Counted from the first letter of the stretch, positions 3,606-64,000 are shown. The stretch is DNA of 64,000 nucleotides from Deltaproteobacteria bacterium (GCA_040218735.1 JAVJQW010000017.1:96001-160000); one strand, 5' to 3'. Numbers and translations are program-made. The notes: generated by a model not told the origin, from the letters alone.

Positions 3606-3673
3606 GGAGCGAACGGTACACACGTCGCGTAGGCCGGCAACGTGCGGTGGCGACGGATGTCGCAGTCGACGCG

Positions 3674-6174: not shown

Positions 6175-6175
6175 C

Positions 6176-6817
6176 TCACTTGCCGGCGGTGCGGAAGATC
6201 GTGACCTTCTTCATCACGACGTCCTGCACCGGCTTGTCCCCGGGCGCGGTCTTCACACGCGCAATCTTGCGCACCACGTCCATGCCCCCGATGACCTCAC
6301 CGAACACCGAGTGCCGGTTGTCGAGGTGCGGCGTCGGCCGCTCCGTGATGAAGAACTGCGAACCGTTCGTCCCCGGCCCGGCGTTCGCCATCGACAGGAT
6401 CCCCGGCTTGTCGTGTTTGAGCGACGGGTAGAACTCGTCCGCGAACTTGTACCCGGGGCCGCCGCGGCCGGTGCCCGTCGGGTCGCCGGTCTGGACCATG
6501 AAGTTCGGGATGACGCGGTGGAAGATGATGCCGTCGTAGTAGTTCGACTTCTTCACCTTGCGAGTCTTCGAGTCGATGTAGGGCTGCTTGCCGCGCGCGA
6601 GGCCCACGAAGTTCGCGACCGTGCGCGGCGCGAGCTTTTCGTGGAGCTTCACTTCGATCGTACCCAGCGTGGTCTCGATCTTGGCGTGGAGCTCACCCTT
6701 GCCCTTCACGCCCTCGAGCGCCTGCTTGATACCGATCTGCTTCGGAGGCTCCTGCGCCACCGCGGTGGACGCGGCGCCGACGAGCAGTGTGAACGCGAAG
6801 AGGCCAATTCGATGCAT
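6176..6817 (-). CDS. Secreted cyclophilin-type peptidyl-prolyl isomerase
   Basis: [40 protein letters not shown]; N-terminal signal peptide. Confidence 0.95.
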
Positions 6818-49288: not shown

Positions 49289-51052
49289 ATGCCTAGGATG
49301 AGGACTGCGACGTTTGTCTCCGTACTCTGTGGCGTCGCCGCCACAGCGGCGTTCACCGGATGCGAAGATCCGACCACGCCCGATCTCTTCATCGCGCGGT
49401 GCGCCGCCGACTCGGAGTGCGGACCGGGATCGATCTGCATCGACGGCGAGTGTGTTCCGCGCGACGCGGTGTCATGCCTGTCCGTCGACGGCGGCCAAGC
49501 GATCCTTCAGCCCGGACCGCCGCTCATCGACTTCGGTCACACGGGCAGCGGCACGAGCATGGCCGACCTCGACCTGCGGAACATCGGCGACTGCACGCTC
49601 ACGATCTTCGAAGCGTACTTCGAGAAAGAAGAGGAGTCCGCGTTCGAGTGCCCGTTCTGCGCGCCCGAAGAGTTCCCGATCGAGCTGTTCCCCTTCCGCG
49701 ACCACGCCGTCGCGGTGTTCTTCACGCCGGACGAAGTCGGCGTCTACGAAGACAACCTCATCCTCCTCTCCGACGACGCCGAGTTCTCCGAGATCAAGGT
49801 CCCGGTCCGCGCGCAGTTCAACGGCCTCCCCGAGGCGTCCGTCGCGCCGGCGTCGCTCGACTTCGACTACGCGCCGGTGGGCCGCACGATCACGCGCACC
49901 ATTCAGATCACCAACCGCGGCACCGGCACCGCGCCGCTCGTGATCAACCGCGTCGAGATCCAGACGTCGACCGACACCTCGTTCTCCTACGAGCCCGAGC
50001 TCGAAGATCCGATCGAGCTGCTCCCGCCGATCGACGACGACCCGGGTGACAGCTACATCCTCAACGTTCGTTACCACCCCAAGGAGATCGACACCCACGT
50101 CGGCGACCTCGTGCTCTACACGAACCAGCCGTCGAACAGCGTGGTGCGCGTGCCGCTCACGGGTTCGTCGAAGACCCCCGCGAAGATCGCCGTCTCCCCC
50201 GAGCAGATCGTGTTCGGCCCGGTGCCGATCGGCGGCACCACCGCCCTCCCGCTCACCATCGTGAACGAAGGCGGCACCCCGCTGCGCATCAGCTACCGCT
50301 GGGGCGGCACGGGCCTGTCCACGGACCTCTCCGCGCTCCCGCTCGTCGTCCCGCCGATTCCGCCGGGCGCGTACACCGAGCTGCAGGTGCTCGTGACGGC
50401 CACGGCCCCCGCGCCGATCACCGGACTGCTGATCCTCGAGACCAACGATCCCTCGCGCCCGTCCGTCACCATACCGGTGTCCGCCGACGGCCAGGACGTC
50501 GTCGGCGCGCAGGTCGTGAAGATCGACATGAATTTCGAGAACGGATCCGACAGCGCCTTCGACGACGACTTCAGAAACGTCGACATGTCGCTCGAGAACC
50601 CGTTCGGTCTGGTCTGCAACAAACAGTACCCGCAGCCCACGAACTGGGGCGCGTTCGGCAACCCGAGCTGGATCAGCTTCGGCGTGAAGGAAGAGCCGGA
50701 GCGCGTCGTCCTCCCGGACGCGATGCAGGACGGCACGTACCGCGTCCTCCTCACCTACGTCGAGGACTGCTCGACGGTCCCGTCGGGGTTGGTCGCCGCG
50801 ATCCTCGGCATCTCGATCGAAGCGCTGATCGCTTACTTCACCGGCGGCATCACGACCGGGATCACGGGCGGCCAGGTCGCGGACGCGATCGACGACCTCT
50901 GTCTCAGTCGAAGCTCCTCGGCCGTCACCGTGACGGTCTATTTGAACGGCGCCATCGTCGCGGAGGTCCCGGTCACGCTGGGCCGGCGCGGTGACTACGT
51001 CTACGCGGTCGACCTCGTGCGGTCCGGCGGCCAGTACACGGTGCGGCGGTGA
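49289..51052 (+). CDS. Lipoprotein with Cys-rich module, three ASH (choice-of-anchor D) Ig-like domains and C-terminal beta domain
   Basis: Lipobox FTGC; CAADSECGPGSICIDGEC; repeated PxxxDF/VFG...xNxG...L motifs. Confidence 0.85.
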   Translation: MPRMRTATFVSVLCGVAATAAFTGCEDPTTPDLFIARCAADSECGPGSICIDGECVPRDAVSCLSVDGGQAILQPGPPLIDFGHTGSGTSMADLDLRNIGDCTLTIFEAYFEKEEESAFECPFCAPEEFPIELFPFRDHAVAVFFTPDEVGVYEDNLILLSDDAEFSEIKVPVRAQFNGLPEASVAPASLDFDYAPVGRTITRTIQITNRGTGTAPLVINRVEIQTSTDTSFSYEPELEDPIELLPPIDDDPGDSYILNVRYHPKEIDTHVGDLVLYTNQPSNSVVRVPLTGSSKTPAKIAVSPEQIVFGPVPIGGTTALPLTIVNEGGTPLRISYRWGGTGLSTDLSALPLVVPPIPPGAYTELQVLVTATAPAPITGLLILETNDPSRPSVTIPVSADGQDVVGAQVVKIDMNFENGSDSAFDDDFRNVDMSLENPFGLVCNKQYPQPTNWGAFGNPSWISFGVKEEPERVVLPDAMQDGTYRVLLTYVEDCSTVPSGLVAAILGISIEALIAYFTGGITTGITGGQVADAIDDLCLSRSSSAVTVTVYLNGAIVAEVPVTLGRRGDYVYAVDLVRSGGQYTVRR

Positions 51053-53031
51053 ACGCGATGAACAAGCGGATCGTCCTCGCCTTCCTCGCCCTCGCGGCGT
51101 GTGACCGTACGAACGCGGGCAGCGGGCCCGTCGAGATGCTGGAGCCGAAGCCCTCCGGTATCGAAGCGGAGCCGCGGTGGCTCACGTTCACGTGTGTCGA
51201 GCCGGGCTGCAACGAGACCCTCGAAGCGCAGATCTCGGTCATCGGCCGGCGCGACGTCGCGATCAAACGCATCGTCCTGTCGGAGCGCGACCGTAACGAC
51301 TTCCTCGTCACGTCGTCGGAGGAGCCCCCCTTCGTGCTCACGGCCGGCGAGGCGCTCGACGTCAGCGTGCAGTACCTCCCGACCGGCGACGTTCGCCTCG
51401 GCGACGTCGAGCTCGAGGTCATCTACACCGACGCGTCCGCCTCCGAAGAGGAGGATCGCATCGAGCCCGGCGAGCTGAAGGTGCCGCTGGTGCGTCGCCT
51501 GATCGGCGAGCCGCGCCTCGCGGTCGACCCGGGCCAGCTCGTGTTCGGCGCCGTCCTCCCCACCGCGGAGAAGCGCCTCCCCCTCACGATCTCCAACGAC
51601 GGCTTCGGCAACGTTGGGCTGATCATCGACTCGATCGAAGCGGAGCCCGCGGGCGTCGTCCGCGTCGAGCGCCTCCCCGAGCGCGCCCTCGTCCCCGGCG
51701 ACAGCTGGGACCTCGAGGTCGTCTTCGCGCCCAACAACGAACGCTTCCTCGAAGGCTGGCTCAACATCGAGCCCGTCGGCTCCACGGTCGAAGGCGCGCG
51801 CGTCCCGCTGCTCGGCACGAGCATCGAGAACCCGACCGTCTACACCGAGCCCGCGGATCGCGTGGACTTCGGCGAAGTGCCGGTCGGCTTCCCCGACATG
51901 GCGACGGTGACGATCCAGAACCGCGGCGCCGCGGACCTCTTCGTCAGCGACGTGCGGCTCGCAGGCCAGGTTGCGGGCGCCGACATGATGGTGATCCTGG
52001 AGGACGGCGTACAGACCGCGACCATCCCGCCGCTCGGAACGCTCGACGCGATCATCACCGTCGAAGGCACCGCGCCCGGCGAGATCGACACCGCGCTGCT
52101 GATCACGTCGACCGACCGCGAGACGCCGGTGCTCGACGTCCCCGTCACGGGCCTGATCACCAAGCCGATCATCCAGGTCACGCCGGGCACGGTCGACTTC
52201 GGCGCGGTGCCGCGCGGGTGGACGACGGTCCAGACCGTCGAGATCGAGAACGTCGGCTACGGCGACCTCGTGCTGTCGAACGTCGCGATGATCCTCGGCT
52301 CCAGCGAGCTGTTCACGATGCGCACCGTCCCGACGCTCCCGATCACCCTGCGCCACGACCAGCGCATCGCGGTGGAGATCGAGTTCCGCTCCGAAGCCGA
52401 AGCGAGCTTCTCGGGCACCCTCGCGATCGACTCGAACGACGCCGAGAACCAATTCATGGAGATCCAGCTCGCCGCGCAGGGCGCCTCCTGCGACGCCGGC
52501 TGCCCGATCGCCAACGGCACCCCGACCTGCACGCGCGGCCTGTGTGAGGTCGCGAGCTGCGACCCCAACTGGTACGACTCCGACGTCGACCCCGTGAACG
52601 GCTGTGAGTGCCGCGAGGTCTCGAACAACGGCGACCCGTCCGCGTTCTGCAGCGAAGGGCGCTACCTCGGCACCGTCGACGACGACGGCGACCGCACGTC
52701 ATTCACCGGCCTCATCCACGCCGAGGACGACATCGACATGATTCGCTTCTTCGGCGAGGACAAGACCAACTTCTTCTCCGACGACTTCGACGTCCGCGTC
52801 ACGCTCGACAGCGCCGACCCGAACATCAAGTTCTGCGTCTACCGCCACGACACCGGTAACCACCTCACGGAGTGTTTCCTCGAGAACGAGTCGTGCCCCG
52901 GCAACCGGAGTTACCGCCGCGACGGCGACCTCGGCCCGGACGACAGCGCGGACTTCGTCGTGAAGATCTTCCGTGAACCGGGGACCGCCGCGTCCTGCAC
53001 GCCGTACACGGTCTTCATCCGCAACGGCTGA
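51049..53031 (+). CDS. Lipoprotein with four ASH Ig-like domains, Cys-rich region and C-terminal beta-sandwich
   Basis: Lipobox LAAC; VFGAV, VDFGEV, VDFGAV domain starts; CDPNWYDSDVDPVNGCEC; GTGA overlap with the previous gene. Confidence 0.85.
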   Translation: MNAMNKRIVLAFLALAACDRTNAGSGPVEMLEPKPSGIEAEPRWLTFTCVEPGCNETLEAQISVIGRRDVAIKRIVLSERDRNDFLVTSSEEPPFVLTAGEALDVSVQYLPTGDVRLGDVELEVIYTDASASEEEDRIEPGELKVPLVRRLIGEPRLAVDPGQLVFGAVLPTAEKRLPLTISNDGFGNVGLIIDSIEAEPAGVVRVERLPERALVPGDSWDLEVVFAPNNERFLEGWLNIEPVGSTVEGARVPLLGTSIENPTVYTEPADRVDFGEVPVGFPDMATVTIQNRGAADLFVSDVRLAGQVAGADMMVILEDGVQTATIPPLGTLDAIITVEGTAPGEIDTALLITSTDRETPVLDVPVTGLITKPIIQVTPGTVDFGAVPRGWTTVQTVEIENVGYGDLVLSNVAMILGSSELFTMRTVPTLPITLRHDQRIAVEIEFRSEAEASFSGTLAIDSNDAENQFMEIQLAAQGASCDAGCPIANGTPTCTRGLCEVASCDPNWYDSDVDPVNGCECREVSNNGDPSAFCSEGRYLGTVDDDGDRTSFTGLIHAEDDIDMIRFFGEDKTNFFSDDFDVRVTLDSADPNIKFCVYRHDTGNHLTECFLENESCPGNRSYRRDGDLGPDDSADFVVKIFREPGTAASCTPYTVFIRNG

Positions 53032-53669: not shown

Positions 53670-54752
53670 GTGCGGGTCGCGATCCTCATCCGCCGCTTCT
53701 CCACGCGCGGCGGGAACGAACGTCAGGCCTTCGAGCTCGCGCGCCACCTCTGCGGCGCCGGCCACGACGTCCACGTGCATTGCCACAAGGCGGACGAGAC
53801 CGCGGCGCTCCCGGGCGCCCACGTGCACGTCCTCCCCGGCATCCGCTTCGACCCGACGGCCGCGATGCTCAGCTACGCGTGGTCCACCCGCCGACTCGTG
53901 CGTCGCCTCCGAAGCGAAGACCGCATCGACCGCGTCATCGGATTCGGCCAGAGCGTCGAGCAGGACGTCTATCGCCTCGGCGGCGGCACCCACGCCGAGT
54001 TCCTCGTCGCCACGAAGGACCACCCGGGCGCTCGCGGCGGTCCCGTGCTCGACCGCGTCGCGCTCCGCCTCGAACGCATCCGCCTGAGGCCGGAGCGCTC
54101 GCCGCACCTCGTCGCGCCGAGCCACCGCGTCGCGGACGAGCTCGTCCGGCACTACGGTGTCGCGACCGATCGCATCCACGTGGTGTGGAACGGCACCGAC
54201 CTCGAGCGCTTCCAAACCGGCCCCGCCGAAGACCTCGGCTGGCGCGACGAACGCCCGCTCGCCCTCTTCGTCGGACAGGATCCCCACCGCAAGGGCTTCG
54301 ACATCGCCGCCGAGGCGACGCGCCGCCTCGGCGCACGCCTTGTTTACGTCGGCCGCGGCGACCGCCCCGCGCGCCTCCCCGACCACGTGCTGTGGGCCGG
54401 CGAGCGCCGCGACATGGAGCGTGTCTACCGCGCCGCCGACGTGCTGATCGCCCCGAGCCGCTACGACCCGTTCGGCGGCGTCGTCCTGGAGGCGGCGGCG
54501 TGCGGACGGGCATCGGTCGCCACGCGGCGCATCGGCGCGACCGAGCGATTCGCCGAGACCCCGCTCGATGCACTGCTCGTCGAGGACCCGGAGGACGTCG
54601 ACGGGGTCACGCGGGCCCTCGAATCAGCGCTGGCCGACCACGACGCGCTCGGCGCCGCCGCGCGTGCGGCCGTGGCCGACGCCTCGATCCAAGCGTGGGG
54701 TGAACGGATGGTCGAGGTTCTATCCCTTCCGATCCCCGAACGTGTGCGCTAA
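53670..54752 (+). CDS. Glycosyltransferase family 4
   Basis: RGGNER, RKGFD, PSRYDPFGGVVLEAAACG. Confidence 0.92.
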   Translation: MRVAILIRRFSTRGGNERQAFELARHLCGAGHDVHVHCHKADETAALPGAHVHVLPGIRFDPTAAMLSYAWSTRRLVRRLRSEDRIDRVIGFGQSVEQDVYRLGGGTHAEFLVATKDHPGARGGPVLDRVALRLERIRLRPERSPHLVAPSHRVADELVRHYGVATDRIHVVWNGTDLERFQTGPAEDLGWRDERPLALFVGQDPHRKGFDIAAEATRRLGARLVYVGRGDRPARLPDHVLWAGERRDMERVYRAADVLIAPSRYDPFGGVVLEAAACGRASVATRRIGATERFAETPLDALLVEDPEDVDGVTRALESALADHDALGAAARAAVADASIQAWGERMVEVLSLPIPERVR

Positions 54753-54761
54753 CGAGGAGCC

Positions 54762-55556
54762 GTGCGGATCAGCGGGCTGGTGGTCTGTAAGAACGAGGCC
54801 GACCGAATCGACGCCTGCCTACGGTCGTTGTCGTTCTGCGACGAGATCGTCGTCGTCGACTCCGGCTCCACGGACGACACCGTCGCGATCGCCCAGCGCC
54901 ACGGCGCGCGGGTGATCGAGCGCCCCTGGAAAAACGCGAACGACCAGAAGGAGTTCGGCCGCCAACAGGCGCAGGGCACGTGGCTCGTGAACCTCGACGC
55001 CGACGAGGTGGTCTCCGACGCGCTCCGCGACGAGATCCTCGCGCTGGTGGAGCGCGGCGGCGACGACGGCGTCGACGCGTACCTCGCGCCGTTCAAGAAC
55101 TACTTCCGCACCGCGTGGGTGCGGCGCTGCGGCTACTACCCGGACCCGCACGTGCGTTTCATCCGTCGGGCCGGCGCCCGCTGGGATCTCGAAACCCCGG
55201 TCCACGACAACGTCCTCGCCGACGGCGCGACCCGGATGCTGAAGGGGCACGTCGAACACCACTCGTTCCACTCGATGGAGCACTACGTCGACAAGTCGAA
55301 GGCCTACGCCGAGGGGTTCGCGCGGCACGCCCACGCCCAGGGGCGCCGGGCGAGCGCCCCGACGATCCTGCTGCATACCGGATGGCGCTTCTTCCGCATC
55401 TACGTCCTGAAGGGCGGATTCCTGGAGGGCGCACTGGGCCTCACGATCGCGGGGCTGCAGGCGTTCGACGTGTTCCGGAAGTACACCCGGCTCTGGGAGC
55501 TCGGTCGATTCCCGCCCGAGGAGGACGTGGGTGAAGGAGCGCCTCCTTCCGCTTGA
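54762..55556 (+). CDS. Glycosyltransferase family 2 (WaaE/KdtX-like)
   Basis: KNEADRI, VVDSGSTDDT, LDADE, YPDPHVR, VHD, GGFLEG. Confidence 0.92.
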   Translation: MRISGLVVCKNEADRIDACLRSLSFCDEIVVVDSGSTDDTVAIAQRHGARVIERPWKNANDQKEFGRQQAQGTWLVNLDADEVVSDALRDEILALVERGGDDGVDAYLAPFKNYFRTAWVRRCGYYPDPHVRFIRRAGARWDLETPVHDNVLADGATRMLKGHVEHHSFHSMEHYVDKSKAYAEGFARHAHAQGRRASAPTILLHTGWRFFRIYVLKGGFLEGALGLTIAGLQAFDVFRKYTRLWELGRFPPEEDVGEGAPPSA

Positions 55557-55590: not shown

Positions 55591-55800
55591 ATGAAGGCGC
55601 TGCTCGTTTGCACCGGACTCTGTTTCGCGCTCCTCGCGCTCCCCGCCTGCGGCGGCTACGACGCGTGCGGCGACAAGAACTGCGGCGACCCGTGCACCGT
55701 GTGTGACCCCGACGACAGCGACTGCGTGGAGTCGCAAGAGGCCAAGAGCTGCAACGTCCGCGGCGTGTGCGCGACGGCCGCCAACAACAGCTGCGGCTGA
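55591..55800 (+). CDS. Small Cys-rich lipoprotein (69 aa)
   Basis: Lipobox LPAC plus 8 further Cys in the mature part. Confidence 0.75.
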   Translation: MKALLVCTGLCFALLALPACGGYDACGDKNCGDPCTVCDPDDSDCVESQEAKSCNVRGVCATAANNSCG

Positions 55801-55801
55801 G

Positions 55802-56701
55802 ATGGATCCCAGCGAGCTCGACGAGCTGTACGCGGGTCCGCTCGCCGAGTTCGTCAGCCGCCGAAACGATCTCGCCAAGGCGCTCAAACGCGCCGGCCGC
55901 AAAGACGACGCGGCCACGGTCAAGGCGCTGAGGAAGCCGAGCCTCGGCGCGTGGGCGATCAACCAGATCGTCCGCCGAGAGCCCGACGTCCTCCGCGCCG
56001 TCTTCGACGCGCTCGATCGCGTGAAGGCGGCCCAGCTCGGCGGCGCCCCGGAGTCCGAGCGCCCCGCGCTCGCGGACGCCATGGCGGAGGAGCGCGCCGC
56101 GCTCGCCGCGGTCGAGTCCACCGCCGAATCGATCCTCACGCAGGCCGAACAGACCGCGACGAAGGCGACGCTGGATCGTGTCGTTCGCTCCGTGCGCGCG
56201 TCGGCGGTCGAACCCACCCGTCGAGAACAGCTCATGCTCGGCCAGGTCACGGAGGACGTCGCGGACGCCGGCTTCTCGGATCTCGCCGCGCAGCTCATGG
56301 GCGGCCTCGTGCCGGCGGCGCCGAAGGCCGCGCCGAGCCCGAAACCATTGCCGACGCCGGCCGCGCCGCGTGCACCTCGTCCCGCGCCCGGCAAGGCGCC
56401 GCCCGATACGATCGACCTCGCGGCGGAGCGCGAACGTCGGGAGAAGATCGAAGCCGAAGCCCGCGCGAAGGCGCGGCGCGAGCGCATCGACAACTACCGG
56501 CGCGAGCTGAAGGCGCTCCGGCTGAGCGAAGAGAAGCTCGACAAGGACCTCGCGCAGGCGGCGCTGGAGGTACAACGCGCAGAGGAGCGGCTCGATCGCG
56601 CAAGGAACCATCACACCCGGGCCAAGGAGCGTGTCACGAGCGCGCGCGCGCAGCGCCAGGAGTTGGAGGAAGCCCTCGCTGCGCTCGAACGCGCGGACTG
56701 A
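55802..56701 (+). CDS. Hypothetical protein with C-terminal coiled coil
   Basis: LDELY...EFVSRRNDLAK...LRKPSLGAWAINQ N-terminal motif, Pro linker, heptad-rich tail. Confidence 0.8.
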   Translation: MDPSELDELYAGPLAEFVSRRNDLAKALKRAGRKDDAATVKALRKPSLGAWAINQIVRREPDVLRAVFDALDRVKAAQLGGAPESERPALADAMAEERAALAAVESTAESILTQAEQTATKATLDRVVRSVRASAVEPTRREQLMLGQVTEDVADAGFSDLAAQLMGGLVPAAPKAAPSPKPLPTPAAPRAPRPAPGKAPPDTIDLAAERERREKIEAEARAKARRERIDNYRRELKALRLSEEKLDKDLAQAALEVQRAEERLDRARNHHTRAKERVTSARAQRQELEEALAALERAD

Positions 56702-56745: not shown

Positions 56746-57912
56746 ATGGGCGTACGAATCGGCGCCGCCGCGATCGGGCTCGCCGCCCTCGTGGGCGTGA
56801 GTTGCTACCCGAAGAACTTCCCGCCGCCGACCGCCAAAGCGAGCTTCGCCAAGGACTTCCCGTTCGACATCGGTCCCTACCTCGTCTACGTCGAGGGCGG
56901 TCGCCTGGACGTCGTCGTCGGGCACGATGCCCTGAAGACACCCCCCGTCGTCGCCTGGCAGACCGGTACCAGCACCAACGCCGAGAGCACCAAGGTCACG
57001 AGCACCTCGATCGACGGTCTCTGGGTTGCCCAGCTCACCGAGCTCCCGCTGGACGTACCGCTGACGTACACCGTCGAGAGTGAGCTGGGGACCGTCGGCC
57101 CGCTCCCCTTCCGTGGGGGCCGCTCGCCCGGACGACGCTTCCGCTTCGCGGCGTTCGGCGACACCCGGACCGGCCACAAGGTCCACCGCGCGCTGATCGA
57201 GAACATGGCGAAGGAGAACGTCGACCTCGTCGTCCACAGCGGTGACCTGGTCGAATCGGGCGGCGTGCTCGACCAGTGGGTGGAGTTCTTCTCGATCGAG
57301 GCGCCGGTGATCGCGTCGGCACCGCTGATCGCCGCGCTCGGCAACCACGACCTCTCCCAACGCAACCACTACAAACGTTTCATCCTCGCGAAGCGCTACG
57401 CCGACGACCAACGTTACTTCTATCGCGACTGGGGCGACGTCCGCGTGATCATCATGGACTCCGAGGAGGAGTCGCGCGCCGGCTCCGCACAGTACGAGTT
57501 CCTGGAGTCCGCGATGCGCGACGGCGCCGAGAAGGACATGTTCATGATCGTCGCGCTCCACCGCCCGCCCTACTCCGCGGGCGCGCACGGCTCCGACCTC
57601 GAGATGCGCGAGATCCTCGGCGAGCTGTGCCCGCGCTTCGGCGTCGAGGTCGTGCTCGCCGGACACGATCACAACTACGAGCGCACCAAACGCATCGACG
57701 GCGTAACCTACTTCGTCGCGGCGTCCGGCGGCGCGCCGATCCGACGCATGAACCCGAGCTGGTTCTCGGAGGTCGTCCGCACCGAGCCGCACTACGTCAT
57801 CTTCGACCTGGAGCGCCGGAGCCTCGTGGGCCGCGCCATCAACCTCGACGGGGACACGTTCGACACCTTCGTGATCCCGCCCCTCGACCCACAACCGCCG
57901 AAGAAGCCATGA
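56746..57912 (+). CDS. Secreted metallophosphoesterase (purple-acid-phosphatase fold), probable lipoprotein
   Basis: Signal with GVSC; FGDTR, SGDLV, GNHD, LHRPPY, AGHDHNYER. Confidence 0.9.
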   Translation: MGVRIGAAAIGLAALVGVSCYPKNFPPPTAKASFAKDFPFDIGPYLVYVEGGRLDVVVGHDALKTPPVVAWQTGTSTNAESTKVTSTSIDGLWVAQLTELPLDVPLTYTVESELGTVGPLPFRGGRSPGRRFRFAAFGDTRTGHKVHRALIENMAKENVDLVVHSGDLVESGGVLDQWVEFFSIEAPVIASAPLIAALGNHDLSQRNHYKRFILAKRYADDQRYFYRDWGDVRVIIMDSEEESRAGSAQYEFLESAMRDGAEKDMFMIVALHRPPYSAGAHGSDLEMREILGELCPRFGVEVVLAGHDHNYERTKRIDGVTYFVAASGGAPIRRMNPSWFSEVVRTEPHYVIFDLERRSLVGRAINLDGDTFDTFVIPPLDPQPPKKP

Positions 57913-59213
57913 AGGGGACACTCGCGGTCATCGCGTTGGCGACGGCCATCGCTTCGCCCGCGCGTGCGCAGACGTCGTCCTCGACGACGGCGGAACCACT
58001 CACGACCGAAGTGCGTCCCGAGACCGCCCCCGGCCTCGACCTCCCGACCCTGGTCCTCCGGCTCCCGCAGGCCTTCCTCGAGCTGGCGTTCGTACCGCTC
58101 ATGCCGGTCGCGGTGCTCTTCGAGCGGTACCACGTGATCGATCGTCTCTTCGATCTGTTCACGAACGACGCCAAGACACTCGCCGTGGTCCCGATCGTCG
58201 TCCCGTTCAACGCCTCCGGCATCGGCGTCGGCGCGACCCTCGTCTACAACGAGCCGCTCGGGAGCGCGGACCGTCTGATCGCCGTGGTGCTCGTTCGCGA
58301 GAACCGCGACCGCAACATCTCCGTCAGCTTCGGACGACGCCTCGCGACCCTCAACGGACGCGCGTTCTCACTCGGCGCTTCGTACTCGTCCGACCACGAC
58401 CAACGCATCTACGGCTTCGGCGCCGGCACGCAGGAGTCCGACGAGCGCTTGATCCGCGTCGACGGCGTCGACGCCACGGCGTCCTTCCAGCTGATCGCAC
58501 CGGCCCGCGTGCCGGAGTACTCGGCGGGGGTCGGCGCGGCGTTCCGTCGGCGGCGCATCGGCGTCGGCAGCGGCGATCGCGCCCCCGGCCTCGCACCCAA
58601 CGACTCCGTCGCGGTGCCGCCCGGCTTCGGACGTACGCTCGACTATCCGGAGTTCTCGCTCGAGAGCGCGTACGACTCACGCGACAGCGTCGGGCGCACG
58701 ACCAAGGGCATCATCGCGAGCCTCCAGTCGTCGGTCACACACGACATGAACGGCGGCTCCACCGGCGGCGTGCGCATCGAAGGTGGCTTCTCTGCGTTCC
58801 TCCCGCTGCTCCCGTTGTACCGCGTGCTCTACCTCTCGGTCGGCGCGGCGGGCACCGTGCCGATCGGCGAAGAGAACGAGGTCCCGCTCCACCAGATGGT
58901 GAGCCTCGGCGGCAGCGGCTCACTCCGTGGTTATCCGTCGGACCGCTTCTTGGGGCGGATGGGTTGGTGGGCGACCGCCGAGTGGCGCTACCGCTTCTAC
59001 GAGTACGAGGACAGCACGATCGGTCTGTCCGCGGTGTGGTTCGGTGACCTCGGTCAGGTCTCGAACGACGTCGACGGCTTCGGCGATGGCCTCCCCTGGT
59101 CGGTGGGTTTTGCGCTGCGCGCCGAGCAGAACCTGATCAACCTCGGTCGCGCGCAAATCGCGTACGGGCCCGAAGGGTTCCGCTTCAGCGTCGGCGTCGG
59201 GGAGGTGTTCTGA
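57909..59213 (+). CDS. Omp85 (BamA/TamA) family barrel without evident POTRA domains
   Basis: Signal peptide ending ARA; YDSRD, LGGSGSLRGY loop-6 motif, AEWRY, terminal F; 434 aa; ATGA overlap. Confidence 0.88.
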   Translation: MKGTLAVIALATAIASPARAQTSSSTTAEPLTTEVRPETAPGLDLPTLVLRLPQAFLELAFVPLMPVAVLFERYHVIDRLFDLFTNDAKTLAVVPIVVPFNASGIGVGATLVYNEPLGSADRLIAVVLVRENRDRNISVSFGRRLATLNGRAFSLGASYSSDHDQRIYGFGAGTQESDERLIRVDGVDATASFQLIAPARVPEYSAGVGAAFRRRRIGVGSGDRAPGLAPNDSVAVPPGFGRTLDYPEFSLESAYDSRDSVGRTTKGIIASLQSSVTHDMNGGSTGGVRIEGGFSAFLPLLPLYRVLYLSVGAAGTVPIGEENEVPLHQMVSLGGSGSLRGYPSDRFLGRMGWWATAEWRYRFYEYEDSTIGLSAVWFGDLGQVSNDVDGFGDGLPWSVGFALRAEQNLINLGRAQIAYGPEGFRFSVGVGEVF

Positions 59214-60874
59214 TGCGCCGGCTCCTCCCGCTGCTGCTCCTCACCGCGTGCGGCGCGCCCGCCTGGAAACAAACGCCGCACGACGTCCGGTTCCAACGTA
59301 CGCCGCCGCCCACCCCGCACGCCGCGCCGAAGCCGAACGAACCGTCGGACTCTTGGTACGCGATCGAGCAGACCACCGCCCGCCCCATCGCGACGGCGCT
59401 GAACCCGGGGCACTACATCGACCTGTTGCGCGGCGGTCCTCCGCCCCTCGACGTCAACGCGTTCGGCGAAGTGGTCGACTCGATGTGGTTCGAGAATCGT
59501 CTCGGCCGGCGCGCGCTGAGCGTCGAAGAGATCCGCCGTGGCCCGAACGAACACGACGGCCCCGACGAACGCCGCCTCGAAGTGCTCGGCGGCAAGATCG
59601 AAGGCGCCACCCCCGGCCTCGTGTTGCGCGACGCACGCGGCGACCGCTACGTCGCGAAGTTCGATCCGCCGGCGTACCCGGGCCTCGCGAGCGGCGCGGA
59701 GATCATCGCGACGAAGATCCTGTGGGCCGCCGGTTATCACGTGCCGGAGAACTACGTCGGCACGCTCGACATGGGTGCGCTCGAGCTGAAGGACGACGCG
59801 ACGACCGGAGGCCACTACGGCGAACGCATCCCGCTCGACCGAGGGCGCCTCGACGATCTGCTCGCCCACGTGAACCCGTTCCCCGACGGCACGGTGCGAA
59901 CGCTCTACTCCCGCTTCCTCCCGGGGCGCCTGATCGGCCCATTCCACTACCGCGGCCAGCGCGCGGACGATCCGAACGACGTCATCCCGCACGAGCGGCG
60001 ACGCTCCCTGCGCGGCCTCGGTTTGTTCTCGGCGTGGCTCAACAACGTCGACGCCCGCGCGTCGAACACCCTCGACGTATTCATCCCCGGCGACGACGGG
60101 CGCGGGTACGTGAAGCACTACCAAATCGACTTTGGTGACGCGCTCGGCTCCGCCGGTCTGGGCCCGAAGTACCTCGGCGAAGGTTACGAAGGTGTCCTCG
60201 ACTGGCCGAAGGTGCTCCGCAGCCTGACCGCGTTCGGCGTGTGGTACCGCCCCTGGCTCGGTCTGCGCCGCTCGCCGTACCGCGCCGTGGGGGTGTTCGA
60301 GGCCGACGTCTTCACCCCCGAGGCCTGGCGCTCCAAGCTGCCCAATCCGGCCTTCGACGAGGCCACCTGGCTCGACCGCTACTGGGCGGCGGCGATCATC
60401 GCGCGCTTCACCCCGTCGCACCTGGCGGCGATCGTGGAGGAAGCGGGCTACATCGAGCCGGGTGCGGACGCCTGGGTGCTGCGTGTGCTCCAGGAGCGTC
60501 AGTTCAAGATCTTGGAGTGGGTCTTCGGGCGGGTGTTGCCGCTCGATGATGTGCGCGCGGAGGGCGCGACGCTGTCGATGACGGACCTCGAGCGCACCTG
60601 CGGCCTCCTCACCGGCGTCCCGGCCGCGTACACGTGGTCGGCCCGCTGGGACGACCAATTCGTCGGGGAGGGGAATGGCCCCACCCCCACCGCCGATCTC
60701 GCGGCGCTGATCGCGGACGCCCGCGACCGCCACGGCGCGGCGTTCGACGACGATCCGTTTCTCACCGTGACCTTCGCGCGGACCGAACCGGCTCACGGTG
60801 CGACGGTCGACGTGCACGTTCGGGTCGTCGAGGGTGCGCTCCTCCCGGTTGGTCTCGATCGAACCGTCGACTAG
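59213..60874 (+). CDS. Lipoprotein with atypical kinase fold (HipA/PI3K-PI4K/CotH-like)
   Basis: Lipobox LTAC; GGKIEGATPG, YVAKFD, SGAEIIATK, WLNNVDARASN, IDFGDALG; TGATG overlap. Confidence 0.75.
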   Translation: MRRLLPLLLLTACGAPAWKQTPHDVRFQRTPPPTPHAAPKPNEPSDSWYAIEQTTARPIATALNPGHYIDLLRGGPPPLDVNAFGEVVDSMWFENRLGRRALSVEEIRRGPNEHDGPDERRLEVLGGKIEGATPGLVLRDARGDRYVAKFDPPAYPGLASGAEIIATKILWAAGYHVPENYVGTLDMGALELKDDATTGGHYGERIPLDRGRLDDLLAHVNPFPDGTVRTLYSRFLPGRLIGPFHYRGQRADDPNDVIPHERRRSLRGLGLFSAWLNNVDARASNTLDVFIPGDDGRGYVKHYQIDFGDALGSAGLGPKYLGEGYEGVLDWPKVLRSLTAFGVWYRPWLGLRRSPYRAVGVFEADVFTPEAWRSKLPNPAFDEATWLDRYWAAAIIARFTPSHLAAIVEEAGYIEPGADAWVLRVLQERQFKILEWVFGRVLPLDDVRAEGATLSMTDLERTCGLLTGVPAAYTWSARWDDQFVGEGNGPTPTADLAALIADARDRHGAAFDDDPFLTVTFARTEPAHGATVDVHVRVVEGALLPVGLDRTVD

Positions 60875-63800
60875 TGCCAGCATCGCAGTCGGTGGCGGCT
60901 CCGGAACGCATCCCCGACGCCATCGGGCCGTACCAGATCCTCGAACCGCTCGGACGTGGCGGCATGGGCGTCGTCTACCGGGCCGCCCACGAACGCACCG
61001 GTGCGCTCGCCGCGCTGAAGACCGTGCTCGTCCCTTCGGGCCGTCACCTCGGCGCCATCCGTCGCGAGATCCAGGCGCTCGCACGCGTGCAGCACCCCGG
61101 CATCGTGCGCATCATGGACGAGGGCGTCGATGATCGCGGCCTGCCCTGGTACGCGATGGAGCTGTTGCACGGGATGTCGCTGCGCGACTACCGCTTCACG
61201 CCGTCCTCGATGACCCCCGACCGCGACGTCGTCACGCGTTCGGCGAGCGACGCCCCCGCCACCGAACCCGTCGTCGCACCGACCGCTCCGTTGCCGCGGC
61301 ACATGTGGAAGCCGGTGCTCAGCATCTTCCGGAAGCTGTGCGCTCCGCTCGCGTACGTACACGGCGAGGGGCTCGTGCACTGCGACCTCAAACCCGAGAA
61401 CGTCTTCCTCCGCTTCGACCTGCACCCCGTGCTCGTGGACTTCGGTCTGATGTCGCGCTTCGGGAGTGATCTGCACCGGGAGATCCTGAACGTCGATCTG
61501 TTCATGGGCACCGCCGAGTACATGGCGCCCGAGCAGTGGGAGGGGAAGCCGGTCGACGCGCGCACGGATCTGTACGCGCTCGGCTGCATCCTGTTCGAAG
61601 CGATCGCCGGCGAGCCGCCGTTCGTCGGCAAACGCAGCGAGCTCTACCGCGCGCACCTTTCGAAACCCGCACCCCGCCGGAGCGCGCCGACGGCATCCCC
61701 GAGGATCTCGACGACCTCGTGCTGAGGCTCCTCGCGAAGCGCCCGCGCGATCGCATCGGACACGCCGACGAAGTCGCGCGCCTCCTCGCGATCCTCGGGG
61801 CGGAGGGCCCGCGCGAGGTCGGCCCCACCGCGCGGCCCTACCTGTTCCGCCCCTCGTTCTCCGGGCGCGGACAGGCCACCCACGAGGTCATCGAGCTCGT
61901 GGCCGGCGGCTCCGAAGACGGGCGCGTCGTCGTGCTCGAGGGTGAGAGCGGCGTGGGCAAGACACGCCTCGCGATGGAAGCCGCACGGATGTCGAAGCGC
62001 GGCGGCGTACGGGTGCTGACCGGCGAGTGCTCGCCGATCCTCCACGACCAGCCGCACGCGCGCGGGTCGGTCCTGCACCCGTTCAAGTCGATCCTCCTGC
62101 ACATCACGGATCTCGTCCGTGAGCGTGGTGATGCGGCGTTCGATCGTCTGGTCGACGGGCGCGCGCGGATCCTCGCGCGCGTCGAGCCGCAGATCGCGAC
62201 GCTCCCCCAGATCGAGCGCGTGCCGGAGCTCATCTCGCTGTCCGTCGACGCGGAGCGCGCGCGCATGCTGAGCGCGCTGGTCGCGACGTTGTCGGTGCTC
62301 GGCGAGGACCAGCGAACCTTCATCGTCATCGACGACATCCAGTGGGCCGACGAGCTCACGTTGGAGCTGCTGCACCTGCTCGTGCGTCGGCGCAGCGCGT
62401 GGCGCAACGTCGTGGTCCTGGCGACGTGTCGCACGGAGGAGATGCCCGAGAGCGTGCGCCGCCTGACGGAGATCGATGAGGTCGGCCACGTCCGCCTCGC
62501 GCGCCTCGGTCCGCGCGCGGTGGAGACGGTCGTGTCGGAGATGCTCGGCTTCCCGCCGCCCGACACGTTCGCGACGTTCATGGCGGAGCAGACGGGCGGC
62601 AATCCGTTCTTCGTGGCGGAGTACCTGCGCGCGGCGATGACCCGCGGCCTGTTGATGCGCGACGGCCAGGGCAAGTGGTCCGTGACGCTGCAGGAAGGCA
62701 ACTACGACGCGCTCGGGTTGCCAAACACGCTCGTCGACGTCCTCGCGCTGCGGCTCGACACGCTCGGCGAAGACGCGCGTGCGTTCGTCGACGCGGCGGC
62801 GGTGCTCGGTCGCGAGGCGGCGCCGCACATCACGCAGCACGTCGCCAAGCGCGCCGACCGGACGACGCGCGTCGGCATCGAGGAGCTCCTCCGCAAGCAG
62901 ATCCTCACGGAGGCCGGCGACGGGCGGCTCCGTTTCTCACACGACAAACTCCGCGAGGTCACCTACGACAACATCGACGAGGCGCACCGCCCCGCGCTCC
63001 ACCGGCGCGCCGCCGAGGCGATCGAAGCGCTCGCGAAGACCCCATCCCCCGCCGCCCTCGCGTACCACTGGGAAGAAGGCGGCCACCCGGAGCGTGCGGT
63101 CGACTACCTCGAGCAGGCCGCGGAGCTCGCGATCGACGCCGGCGCGCATCGGGACGGTGCGACGCACCTCGCGCGCCTCCTCACGCTCGCGGAGAAGCCG
63201 ACCGGCGACGTCGAAGAGCGGCACCGCACCGCACGCTGGCATCGGCAGCTCGGCGCCGCGCACCTCGCGTCGGGGGATCTCGAGACGTCGCGCGTACACT
63301 CCAGCCGCGCGTTGTCGCTGCTCGCGCTCGACCCGCCGCAGTCGACGGGCGAGTGGGCGATGAAGCTCGCCACGGAGCTGCTCCGGCAGGTCGCGCACCG
63401 GCTGCTCCCGCCGCGTTTTTACCAAGAGCCGACGTCGAAGGCGCTCCTCGCGGAGGCGACGCAGGCGAGCGGCACGATCGCGCGCGTCGCGTTCTTCGAG
63501 AACGACGCGCTGCAGATCGTCGCGAGCGCGTTGTGGTCGATCAACCTCGCGGAGCGCGCGAGTCACCTCCTGGAGGCGGCGCGAAACTACAGCGGCCTCG
63601 GCTGGGTCTTCGGGCTCTCGGGGCTCCATCAGATCGCGGACGGGTACTTCGACCGCGCGCGTGCGACGGGCATCGAGCAGCGCGACTACAACGGCCTCGT
63701 CTTCAGCCTCACCTCGGAGGCGGTGTACCGGATCGGGCGGGGCCAGTGGGATCGTGCGACGCGGGTGTTGTCGGAGTGTGACGCTCCGCTGGAGGAGCTC

Positions 63801-64000
63801 AAGGATCCGCAAGCCCGAGAGCTCGTCGAGACGCTGCGTGGACACCCGGAGTACTTCGCCGGTCGCTACGACGACGCCATCGCGCGGCACCGGTTCGTCC
63901 TCGACTCCGCACGTCAGCGCGAGAACCGACAACACGAAGCGTGGAGCCTCTACTGCGCCGCGCGGTCCGCGCTCGAGCTGGAGCGCTACGCGGAGGCGAT
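60874..64000 (+). pseudogene. Ser/Thr kinase + AAA-type ATPase + TPR protein, frameshifted near 61672 (or sequencing error); runs off the window
   Basis: GRGGMG, HCDLKPEN, DFG, YMAPE, then stop at 61725; the shifted frame continues GIPEDLDDLVLRLLAKRPRDR, GESGVGKT, IDDIQWAD, GGNPFF to the window end. Confidence 0.85.

Follow-up and report, generated by a model that had tools for sequence, protein, structure and literature searches.

A POTRA-less Omp85 barrel and a kinase-fold lipoprotein encoded side by side in a deltaproteobacterium: a candidate periplasmic phosphotransfer system

The described proteins closest to the barrel considered here are the 'noNterm' Omp85 proteins, whose function is given as unknown in the available text of PMC4104836 and of a study of Leptospira (PMC11358297). 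Like gene 2 of the locus analysed below, they have 16 strands, a loop-6 (L/M)RG(W/Y) motif, an FxDxG-type motif and a short periplasmic N-terminus without POTRA domains. The Leptospira noNterm genes have an exported-lipoprotein gene adjacent to them, as is the case here, but the partners described in the available part of PMC11358297 are DUF1566 or Big/integrin-type lipoproteins, whereas ours belongs to a kinase-fold family without a Pfam model. Two further features distinguish our pair from the Leptospira genes: the barrel extension is a predicted docking arm, and nucleotide-exchanger and phosphoesterase genes accompany the pair. Fusions of a Metallophos domain to an Omp85 barrel (the 'Metallo' subfamily, PF00149 plus barrel) were reported by Heinz and Lithgow 2014 (PMC4104836), where the subfamily is termed metalloprotease even though the domain is PF00149, and where noNterm and Metallo barrels are found to be alike in sequence. 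The same two families occur together in the window (the whole 64,000-nucleotide stretch that was analysed), but as separate genes joined by an ATGA overlap and not as one polypeptide.

Other systems that combine a barrel with dedicated partners are less similar. The BAM complex (BamA with the lipoproteins BamB-E) differs in that our barrel lacks POTRA domains, the partner is enzyme-folded and each paralogous barrel in the same genome has a partner of its own. TpsB/TpsA and Slam systems share with our locus a barrel gene that lies beside one specific exported partner, the pair being duplicated as a unit. Our barrel is, however, not of the TpsB type and is without POTRA, its partner is globular and predicted to be periplasmic, and the Slam barrels form another family.

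Three overlapping genes for exported proteins

The locus comprises three open reading frames joined by stop/start overlaps (Table 1). The coordinates and both overlaps proposed in the initial annotation were verified in the sequence, its export signals are seen at the N-termini of all three translations, and its product types were borne out by Pfam matches above cut-off (genes 1 and 2) and by conserved, ordered kinase motifs (gene 3).

Table 1. Positions of the genes and motifs of the locus, counted from the first nucleotide of the window.
Feature	Position	Strand	Description
Gene 1	56746..57912	+	metallophosphoesterase, exported, 388 aa
Gene 2	57909..59213	+	Omp85 barrel without POTRA, 434 aa
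Gene 3 (P0003)	59213..60874	+	lipoprotein with atypical kinase fold, 553 aa
ATGA stop/start overlap, genes 1/2	57909..57912	+	read directly from sequence
TGATG stop/start overlap, genes 2/3	59211..59215	+	read directly from sequence
N-terminal periplasmic extension, barrel residues 29-84	57993..58160	+	predicted to dock the kinase-fold protein; co-folding interface 29-41 and 44-79
LRGY, loop 6, residues 339-342	58923..58934	+	motif located in sequence; loop between strands 11 and 12 in model
FGDLG (FxDxG-type), strand 13, residues 378-382	59040..59054	+	motif located in sequence
Lys149, strand-3 lysine (strand 145-150)	59657..59659	+	kept in 114/115 relatives
Asp280...Asn285, catalytic-loop D-x4-N	60050..60067	+	115/115 and 113/115 relatives; after helix 269-276
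Asp306-Phe-Gly, DFG-type motif	60128..60136	+	Asp 115/115, Phe 91/115, Gly 96/115; after strand 298-304

The gene 1 product scores 67 bits on Metallophos (PF00149, the calcineurin-like phosphoesterase family; cut-off 21.5). A hydrophobic N-terminus ending in a lipobox-like LVGVSC (Cys20 of the translation) is followed by a beta-rich region (~30-125) and then the Metallophos domain (132-311), and the five metal-ligand motifs that mark calcineurin-like metallophosphoesterases are present in order (GDTR, GDLV, GNHD, LHRP and GHDH). The closest solved relatives are diphosphonucleotide phosphatase 1 (PPD1, E 4.7e-14) and purple acid phosphatases (range to 1e-5). Assignment as a purple acid phosphatase was nevertheless rejected because the second motif reads GDLVE and is without the Tyr ligand of GDxxY, the residue which gives those enzymes their purple colour.

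Gene 2 encodes a signal peptide (residues 1-20, ending ASPARA and followed by QTSS in the translation) and an Omp85 match (PF01103, 59.8 bits against a cut-off of 24) covering residues 127-431. The structure model places a disordered segment at 21-44, helices at 45-73 and 76-84, and 16 strands between residues 91 and 430, forming a C-terminal beta-barrel which carries both the loop-6 motif, defined as (V/L/M)RG(Y/F/W), and the strand-13 FxDxG motif, its lid-lock partner (definitions from the available text of PMC11358297). No Pfam match to POTRA was found, and residues 21-90 are modelled as disorder plus two helices with no POTRA fold, which places gene 2 in the noNterm class. The initial view that the protein has no room for POTRA domains was thus roughly right, yet about 70 residues do separate the signal peptide from strand 1, and across 33 barrels two positions of the N-terminal extension (about 65 residues), Glu58 and Pro63, are each conserved to 90% or more. 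Identification as BamA was rejected (TIGR03303 score 25.3 against the curated equivalog cut-off of 297.15), as was identification as a TpsB/FhaC protein (ShlB-type PF03865, 14.7 bits against a cut-off of 22.7, and without POTRA).

The gene 3 product (P0003) has a lipobox, LLLTAC, whose Cys13 is at least 90% conserved among 42 relatives. This signal is not family-wide: in Gemmatimonadota, Latescibacterota, Eisenbacteria and Acidobacteriota the signal peptides of the relatives lack the Cys, and a heuristic count finds a lipobox-like signal in 77 of 108 relatives. The model (pLDDT 90.4, pTM 0.91) divides the protein into an N-terminal docking segment (~21-90), a kinase fold (~114-441) and a C-terminal Ig/fn3-like sandwich (442-553). 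A Foldseek search returned 23 matches at E<=0.001 and, among the matches listed, all are kinases, so the initial expectation of a kinase fold in the third protein was upheld at the level of the model. The fold is bilobal and of the CtkA/HipA/Fam20/PI4KII/CotH branch; the secreted kinases Fam20C, CtkA and CotH are among the closest folds and Fam20A was also matched, all of them distantly (rmsd near 4 Å, Foldseek TM 0.23-0.53). In sequence, gene 3 stands apart from these atypical kinases. Neither Pfam nor NCBIfam yielded a match at E<=1, and this includes the HipA, Fam20C, CotH and PI3/PI4-kinase Pfam families; a PDB profile search reached CtkA only at E 0.23, and the Atlas leads to Fam20C (0.80) and HipA (0.79) fell under the level that counts. 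It also differs from them in its own Sec or lipoprotein signal, its N-terminal barrel-docking segment and its C-terminal Ig-like domain. The family comprises about 3600 sequence clusters.

A strand-3 Lys, a catalytic-loop Asp and Asn, and a DFG-type Asp occur in the kinase order in gene 3 (Table 1). A profile alignment matches Lys149 to the CtkA lysine within VKF and, judging from motif order and modelled secondary structure, Asp280, Asn285 and Asp306 are probably equivalent to the catalytic residues of known kinases. Lys128, Gly131 and Gly135 of the glycine-rich loop are conserved at 99% among the 115 distinct relatives, while the acidic position of helix C is variable (Glu in 56, Asp in 38 and Gly in 13 of the 115).

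The barrel and the kinase-fold protein as a conserved pair

Neighbourhoods were surveyed around 115 distinct kinase-like genes carrying six phylum labels. A barrel of the same subfamily adjoins the kinase-like gene in 108 of these loci, as the initial annotation had anticipated, and the arrangement is therefore not a product of chance. In 106 loci an Omp85 ORF of the noNterm-type subfamily lies within 400 bp on the same strand (99 upstream, 7 downstream); two further kinase-like genes have a barrel ORF at about 690 bp, and three others are truncated by contig ends. All four kinase paralogues in the genome under study have an adjacent barrel. The two proteins also co-diverge, with a Mantel r of 0.91 over 99 pairs that none of 2000 within-genome partner shuffles equalled (maximum 0.86), although related genomes are not independent, so that this figure and the Fisher figures overstate the case. 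Cognate matches were concordant in 34 of 38 cases, against 17 expected by chance. The barrel-kinase pair is the conserved core of these loci. The 'writer/eraser pair' of kinase and phosphatase proposed in the initial annotation is not that core, since a phosphoesterase gene is found in 40/115 loci, whereas the barrel-kinase pair is near-universal.

Co-folding of the barrel with P0003 gave ipSAE values of 0.76, 0.77 and 0.77 (best control 0.00), with a partner pLDDT of at least 88 and at least 97% of contacts agreeing between runs. Among solved complexes 58 of 80 reach the tool's mark, as do 2 of 110 mismatched pairs; these counts are only a rough guide here because the alignments were self-made. 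The predicted interface involves barrel residues 29-79 and the turns 301-305, 359-367 and 375-377, together with P0003 residues 21-90, 255-262 and 320-349; the catalytic residues themselves are excluded. The prediction thus seats the kinase-fold protein on the periplasmic face of the barrel, gripped by the N-terminal extension. Of the initial proposal that the enzymes are exported by, or docked on, the barrel, the docking part is supported. Export to the surface or to prey is less favoured, because the predicted contacts (the extension and periplasmic turns) are periplasmic and the relatives from four phyla lack the lipid-anchor Cys.

Phosphoesterase and transporter genes at related loci

The 40 phosphoesterase genes counted above lie within 2.5 kb of the kinase-like gene, in three different arrangements, and the phosphoesterases from other phyla carry N-terminal export signals in 8 of 8 readable cases. 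A paralogous locus in the same genome has a PhoD-like gene with a TAT signal and a divergent TLC-HEAT gene. The existence of Metallophos-Omp85 fusions, as asserted initially, is borne out both by PMC4104836, in its available text, and by 16 fused ORFs (1216-1291 aa) found in another phylum; four were scanned, with an N-terminal Metallophos domain in 4/4 and a C-terminal Omp85 in 2/4. A kinase-like segment in such fusions, as also proposed initially, receives some support. Their unannotated middle of ~700 residues shows a weak collinear likeness to our kinase family (375 columns, hhalign E 8.5e-4), but at a probability of 24% and with Arg in the strand-3 Lys column, and hmmsearch and whole-length hhalign returned nothing. 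In the fusion phylum the kinase family itself occurs in only 6/301 genomes, always unfused.

The initial annotation missed a recurrent partner of the TLC/NTT transporter type. Of the 115 kinase loci, 43 have a TLC-like ORF no further than 6 kb away, and at 18 the distance is at most 300 bp. All nine tested exceed the Pfam PF03219 cut-off (21), a match that indicates superfamily membership only. Membership of the curated NTP/NDP exchange family (TIGR00769) was rejected for these neighbours, which belong to related loci and not to the window: four of five score 28-72 bits against a cut-off of 387, the fifth has no match, and they are remote from characterised exchangers. Across the sampled genomes, TLC is present in 33/34 with the kinase and 158/568 without it; the corresponding counts are 28/28 and 144/273 in the phylum of the window, and 5/6 and 14/295 in a second phylum, where kinase and TLC genes are no more than about 3 kb apart in all five. 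Five genomes from five other phyla, chosen for having a TLC gene at the locus, place 10/10 genome-wide TLC matches inside the kinase locus. We found no TLC gene on the contig of the window, for which a nucleotide supply in trans is consequently assumed.

The long TLC form has HEAT repeats and a cNMP-binding gene after it, and in this it exactly matches the NTT-HEAT (+cNBD) genes that Major et al. 2017 (PMC5381601) described from free-living bacteria. In its available text, that account treats all characterised NTTs as nucleotide importers, assigns no function to the free-living forms, contains 0 occurrences of 'periplasm' or 'export', and makes no mention of linkage to an Omp85-kinase pair. 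That the pair lies beside ATP/ADP-type transporter genes in other bacteria is a hint that phosphate transfer may take place outside the cytoplasm.

A proposed periplasmic role and its alternatives

The reading that we prefer, with a probability of roughly 45%, is a periplasmic phosphotransfer enzyme seated on its own barrel, with nucleotide arriving through an inner-membrane exchanger and a phosphoesterase as counterpart. The N-terminal extension of the BamA-like, POTRA-less barrel would hold the exported kinase-fold protein (a lipoprotein in this organism) at the periplasmic face, where it would be an active nucleotide-dependent phosphotransferase; a protein, lipid or glycan of the envelope could be its substrate, perhaps one that the barrel handles. 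Exchangers of the TLC/NTT type, whose genes adjoin the pair in numerous lineages and, in the present genome, are found at other sites, would pass nucleotide across the inner membrane, and the exported metallophosphoesterase of the window, together with the PhoD-like enzyme of the paralogous locus, would remove or recycle phosphate. Gene structure, folds, conserved residues, linkage, co-divergence and co-occurrence across genomes were established by the analysis, and the complex with its periplasmic position is predicted; that the enzyme is catalytic, that ATP is its phosphate donor, which way the exchangers transport and what the phosphatase does are parts of this picture that we infer. Against the nucleotide supply it can be said that a minority of loci (43 of 115) have TLC within 6 kb, that TLC is also common in kinase-free genomes (144/273, 14/295), and that the periplasm is not known to offer ATP. 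In known structures, barrels of the BamA type are shut towards the exterior, leaving no obvious way out for a product.

A different role for the barrel, and the picture preferred in the initial annotation, is two-partner export, in which the kinase-fold lipoprotein, perhaps along with the phosphoesterase, would be carried by a dedicated translocator to the surface or the medium, as in TpsB/TpsA or Slam systems, and would there target molecules of the surface, the matrix or prey. One barrel per cargo gene and co-divergence are the two-partner pattern, the closest folds include secreted kinases, the predicted docking could represent a pre-export state, and the Leptospira noNterm genes precede lipoprotein genes, one of whose products is reported to be surface-exposed (PMC11358297, in the part available). 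With the predicted contacts on the periplasmic side, we regard this as unlikely.

Markedly less probable is scavenging, whereby the module would take up external nucleotides or phospho-compounds: the phosphoesterases would trim them, the kinase-fold protein would bind or re-phosphorylate them and TLC would import them to the cytoplasm, as do the NTTs of intracellular parasites. The linked enzymes are indeed of phosphate-scavenging types (purple-acid-phosphatase-like, and PhoD-like with a TAT signal), and import is the direction of all characterised NTTs (PMC5381601, available text). However, scavenging provides no phosphate donor, and one is required by a kinase whose catalytic-type Asp and Mg-binding residues are near-invariant; tight one-to-one co-divergence of barrel and kinase is unexpected for a general uptake pore. 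We also know of no Omp85 barrel that serves as a solute channel. Slightly more improbable still is a non-catalytic accessory role, with a pseudokinase scaffold replacing POTRA domains or BamD-like lipoproteins in a specialised OMP-assembly barrel, the transporter and phosphatase neighbours being unrelated. The fold matches include a pseudokinase, Fam20A, the predicted position of P0003 matches the POTRA and BamD site on BamA, and an assembly role for noNterm barrels was proposed by Heinz and Lithgow (PMC4104836, available text). Near-invariance of Lys149, Asp280, Asn285 and Asp306 across six phylum labels would nonetheless be unexpected for a scaffold, and the genome-wide specific TLC linkage in five genomes and the strong co-occurrence of kinase and TLC also argue against it.

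The phosphotransfer reading has a broader form, which is tentative and rather doubtful: that some free-living diderms use NTT/TLC proteins to bring ATP or another nucleotide into the periplasm on purpose, thereby powering a barrel-clamped kinase-fold enzyme. If true, this would place a nucleotide-driven machine at the outer membrane, in a compartment thought to be without such an energy source, and would provide a function for three orphan groups, namely the noNterm and Metallo barrels, the free-living NTT and NTT-HEAT transporters, and the kinase-fold family.

Three overlapping genes and a kinase-fold family without a name

The locus is formed by three genes that overlap at their stop and start codons (see table). 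The reading frames and the two junctions, ATGA and TGATG, that had been proposed in the initial annotation were confirmed directly from the sequence, and the translations contain the export signals claimed for all three proteins: a lipobox-like ...VGVSC in the metallophosphoesterase P0001, a signal peptide with an ARA end followed by QTSS in the barrel protein P0002, and a canonical lipobox (LLLTAC) in P0003, the product of gene 3. Among proteins of solved structure, P0001 is closest to plant diphosphonucleotide phosphatase 1 (E 4.7e-14) and to purple acid phosphatases. All five metal-ligand motifs are found in P0001, the second of which reads GDLVE and is without the tyrosine that marks purple acid phosphatases at this point. 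P0002 proved to be an Omp85 barrel without a POTRA domain; its loop 6 contains LRGY and its strand 13 FGDLG. It falls under the cut-offs of the BamA equivalog and ShlB/FhaC models, FhaC/TpsB-type structures are absent among the 50 matches listed for its model, and it belongs to the class that Heinz and Lithgow call 'noNterm' (PMC4104836).

Features of the locus and its flanks (window positions)
Feature	Position	Strand	Length	Observation
Gene 1 (P0001, metallophosphoesterase)	56746-57912	+	388 aa	Pfam Metallophos, 67 bits (cut-off 21.5)
Gene 2 (P0002, Omp85 barrel)	57909-59213	+	434 aa	Omp85, 59.8 bits (cut-off 24)
Gene 3 (P0003, kinase-fold lipoprotein)	59213-60874	+	553 aa	no Pfam or NCBIfam family at E ≤ 1
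Hanks-type kinase ORF	60874-61725	+		Pkinase, E 3.4e-37; GTG start overlaps gene 3 stop (TAGTG)
AAA_16/TPR STAND-type ORF	61536-63998	+		other frame; ~190-base overlap with Hanks kinase ORF
ORF directly upstream of gene 1	55703-56698	+	332 aa	no Pfam family
GT4 and GT2 glycosyltransferase genes	53670-55553	+		just upstream of the locus
HYDIN/VesB-like ORF	51049-53028	+	660 aa	Ig and DUF1573 domains

P0003 matches nothing among PDB sequences at E ≤ 10 either and, because all of these sequence searches gave no match, its classification needed the fold. The ordered atypical-kinase motifs noticed at the outset are borne out by the predicted structure, which is matched by CtkA (15.2; 231 aligned, rmsd 4.0, model residues 114-447), Fam20C (14.4; 260 aligned, residues 26-441), PI4KII-beta (13.0), CotH (12.2), HipT (11.5), HipA (9-11) and MavQ (10.6), and in its C-terminal part (442-540) by Ig/fn3-like domains (7.9). 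They are also borne out by the near fixation of kinase-type residues across 115 distinct members of the family, drawn from several phyla: Lys149 (114/115), Asp280 (115/115), Asn285 (113/115) and Asp306 (115/115), together with Lys128, Gly131 and Gly135 of the glycine-rich loop (99%). The acidic position of helix C is variable (Glu in 56, Asp in 38 and Gly in 13). His260, Arg263, Arg264, Arg267 and His302 are kept in 114 or 115 of the 115; the fixed His and Arg residues that cluster ahead of the catalytic loop may point to an anionic substrate.

By sequence comparison, P0003 is a member of a large family without a name. A word-indexed search returned 281 relatives, and all 120 of those listed are named 'hypothetical' only and are without a Pfam domain. 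Exhaustive profile searching gave 3614 cluster representatives at E ≤ 0.001, of which 1185 pass E ≤ 1e-30, with lengths of 440-610 aa in nearly all of the best 150 matches. Searching the Atlas with P0003 yielded the protein's own clusters and, below the threshold, leads to Fam20C and HipA, and a search for longer, fused relatives, weak by its own rating, found none.

Linkage of barrel, kinase and phosphoesterase genes

The window's own genome (11.6 Mb, 70 contigs) encodes four kinase-fold paralogues, with an Omp85 gene of the subfamily directly upstream of each. Neighbourhoods were surveyed in the window's phylum at 40 of 63 listed places, which were chosen before the neighbours were seen (left aside were the 4 in the window's own genome and a further 19 that were for the most part partial matches or on short contigs), and in named public genomes at 79 loci from the best 80 of 236 confirmed. 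After removal of identical sequences, 115 distinct kinase-like genes were retained from 128. The loci are labelled Myxococcota, Gemmatimonadota, Latescibacterota, Acidobacteriota, Eisenbacteria and Salinibacteraceae, and include MAGs labelled Alpha- or Proteobacteria. Related genomes in this survey are not independent, and distant branches of the family are under-sampled because the public loci were picked by similarity to the query.

The linkage seen in the window recurs: a barrel gene lies on the same strand within 400 bp of the kinase gene at 106 of the 115 loci (99 upstream, 7 downstream). It is found ~690 bp upstream at two more, 1.3 kb off on the opposite strand at one and 5 kb downstream at another; three loci end at a contig edge, and two, both labelled Latescibacterota, have no barrel within 7 kb. 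At one locus (L087) the ORF that precedes the kinase-like gene is broken by a masked run at ~3454-6579, which appears as X in translation, and the barrel there is therefore only partly readable. Barrel and kinase distances are strongly correlated (Mantel r 0.91, 99 pairs), a value reached by 0 of 2000 within-genome partner shuffles (maximum 0.86). In 34 of 38 cases (17 expected), the barrel closest to the cognate one is that of the nearest foreign kinase. On this basis, we can conclude that the barrel-kinase pair is old and that its two genes have been duplicated together.

A third gene, for the phosphoesterase, is common without being universal. It occurs within 2.5 kb at 40/115 loci and, among the 40 public loci with full-length matches, is present at 28, missing at 7 and cut off by a contig end at 5. 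Its position varies: it may be upstream and co-oriented, downstream (L016/L078) or, as in Gemmatimonadota, Eisenbacteria and Acidobacteriota, upstream and divergent; N-terminal export signals are present in all eight readable copies from other phyla.

Other neighbours were considered as candidate members. The Hanks kinase and AAA_16/TPR parts downstream of gene 3 form a single ORF of 1200-1248 aa in two close relatives (L005, L006), and the window's copy therefore looks frameshifted or mis-assembled. The upstream glycosyltransferase genes have no counterpart in any related locus and are therefore probably outside the module, while homologues of the 332-aa ORF hold the same position in two related genomes only (L008/L047 and L009/L048). 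Next to the module, eight Gemmatimonadota-labelled loci (L090, L096-L098, L100, L110, L114 and L118) carry genes for a convergent Hanks kinase, for a DegP-like protease (Trypsin_2 and PDZ) and for NhaA, which may be plain synteny since this flank is confined to one phylum. Module membership was rejected for the Hanks kinase-AAA_16-TPR protein, the convergent Hanks kinase, the DegP-like protease, NhaA, histidine kinases and a PilZ protein; these recurrent neighbours are read as kinship synteny because they belong to one lineage or to abundant families.

The predicted barrel-kinase complex and the fused Omp85 proteins

Barrel residues 21-434 were co-folded with P0003 residues 14-553 using alignments made for this analysis. 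The pair scored 0.76, 0.77 and 0.77, whereas none of the three controls scored above 0.00, with a partner pLDDT of at least 88 for the pair and contacts agreeing to at least 97% between its runs; the score mark was reached in 58 of 80 cases for solved complexes and in 2 of 110 for mismatched pairs, and is a rough guide here given the custom alignments. The predicted complex supports binding of P0003 to the barrel, in line with the barrel-enzyme association first suggested for this locus. In the model, the barrel makes contact through residues 29-79, which stand where POTRA domains would be, and through 301-305, 359-367 and 375-377, which strand parity places on the periplasmic side of the barrel, in turns 5 and 6 and at the ends of strands 12 and 13. 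The contacting residues of P0003 are 21-90, 201-203, 255-262, 320-349, 539 and 544. The tightest modelled pairs, between barrel 32-38 and P0003 23-31, suggest strand pairing, which fits a motif kept just past the signal peptide in the P0003 family (C..PxW[KR]..PHD among close relatives and P[VI]xW...D among distant ones). This motif is also kept in members from Gemmatimonadota, Latescibacterota, Eisenbacteria and Acidobacteriota that have a signal peptide and no lipid-anchor Cys, and these would need the barrel to remain at the outer membrane.

PMC4104836 describes Omp85 proteins fused to PF00149, there called a metalloprotease domain, and states that noNterm barrels resemble them. Searching 151 genomes of the phylum of the Salinibacteraceae genome with the barrel profile listed 16 ORFs of 1216-1291 aa. 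Four were scanned: an N-terminal Metallophos domain was found in all four and a C-terminal Omp85 domain in two at E ≤ 0.01, with ~700 residues without annotation between them. The initial annotation had placed a kinase-like segment there. In its favour, the larger kinase profile, built from 115 sequences, gives a collinear alignment over 375 columns with the middle parts cut out of the 16 fusions (E 8.5e-4, probability 24%), taking in the glycine-rich loop, the catalytic-loop Asp and one C-lobe helix. This is the only comparison to give a signal: with the kinase alignment compared to four fusion proteins over their whole length, hhalign reached a probability of 0.5%, hmmsearch with two kinase profiles gave nothing under E 0.08 in five fusions, and an Atlas search with the fusion middle returned clusters without names only. 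A kinase-like middle in the fused proteins is plausible but unproven.

Nucleotide exchangers and the proposed role of the module

A search for longer relatives of P0002, again weak by its own rating, gave a single protein, P0273 (813 aa; source name 'ATP:ADP antiporter'), with Pfam TLC, MFS_1 and Omp85 domains. Because its Omp85 part opens with a signal-peptide-like stretch of its own, it probably represents two neighbouring genes called as a single one. In the window's own genome, a paralogous module on another contig (L124; C42, 247000-263000) has a fuller gene set than the window, with a TLC-HEAT gene divergent from the barrel, followed by a cNMP-binding gene, and with a TAT-signal PhoD-like phosphatase after the kinase-fold lipoprotein gene. 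TLC-like ORFs lie within 6 kb at 43/115 loci (22/36 outside Myxococcota labels versus 21/79 inside) and within 300 bp at 18, and all nine neighbours sampled exceed the Pfam TLC cut-off. The TLC neighbours are only distantly related to the exchangers that have been characterised, with 28-72 bits on TIGR00769 against a cut-off of 387. The window's own contig has no TLC gene.

Chance proximity is low, with seven PF03219 matches in 11.6 Mb giving ~1% per 14-kb window in the own genome. In five genomes of five other phyla, chosen for having TLC at the locus, all ten whole-genome TLC matches fall inside it, and 14 control genomes had none. Across 301 genomes of the window's phylum, TLC is present in 28/28 with the kinase versus 144/273 without (one of the 144, G195, is unpublished; Fisher p 6e-8, not corrected for kinship). 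Across 301 genomes of the Salinibacteraceae genome's phylum it is present in 5/6 versus 14/295 (p 3e-6), and lies within ~3 kb of the kinase gene in all five co-occurring genomes.

The TLC/NTT-like set of the window's genome is unusually large for a free-living bacterium (contigs C8, C17, C21, C39, C58, C70, C9 and C42; the PF03219 matches, or ~9 tblastn loci), and only one of them adjoins a barrel-kinase pair. Within the same phylum, a family of small genomes (f8; 0.3-3.4 Mb) has canonical TLC proteins at 500-640 bits and the kinase-fold gene in 0 of 21; here the transporter is put to its classical, parasite-type use.

All evidence on the module is computational. We favour, with a probability of roughly 0.45, a reading in which the kinase-fold protein would be a periplasmic phosphotransferase docked on its cognate barrel, TLC exchangers would supply it with nucleotide, and exported phosphoesterases would oppose or complement it. 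An antiporter facing an ADP-producing kinase compartment would, we infer, run ATP out and ADP in. A dedicated barrel that has co-diverged with its partner would also suit an unlikely alternative, in which the barrel carries the enzyme to the cell surface; the periplasmic contacts of the modelled complex speak against it. Less probable again is the scavenging of nucleotide or phosphate with TLC as an importer, which would suit the exported phosphoesterases and against which the near-fixed kinase-type residues speak. Those residues speak likewise against the least probable of the three, a BamD-like accessory without catalysis, to which the predicted docking in place of POTRA domains would be congenial.

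The literature met on Omp85, periplasmic kinases and ATP, Fam20C/CotH/HipA and NTT-HEAT contains no description of a barrel-kinase-transporter module. PMC11358297 reports that lipoprotein genes come after those of Leptospira noNterm barrels, whose function is left open, and PMC5381601 reports NTT and NTT-HEAT(+cNBD) genes of unknown function in free-living bacteria, without the words 'export' or 'periplasm'. Each part of the module falls in a known superfamily; the novelty lies in how the parts are combined and in where the proposed chemistry would take place.

The proposal bears on the role of POTRA-less and phosphoesterase-fused Omp85 proteins, a question raised in 2014 and still open in 2024, and on why NTT transporters persist in free-living bacteria, a question raised in 2017. 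The periplasm and outer membrane are textbook ATP-free compartments and, to our knowledge, every known outer-membrane machine draws its energy from the inner membrane or from folding. If the proposal is true, a large bacterial family would join the small set of kinases acting outside the cytosol, and an Omp85 barrel combined with an exported kinase-type enzyme and an inner-membrane nucleotide exchanger would challenge, in a testable way, the picture of an ATP-free envelope.
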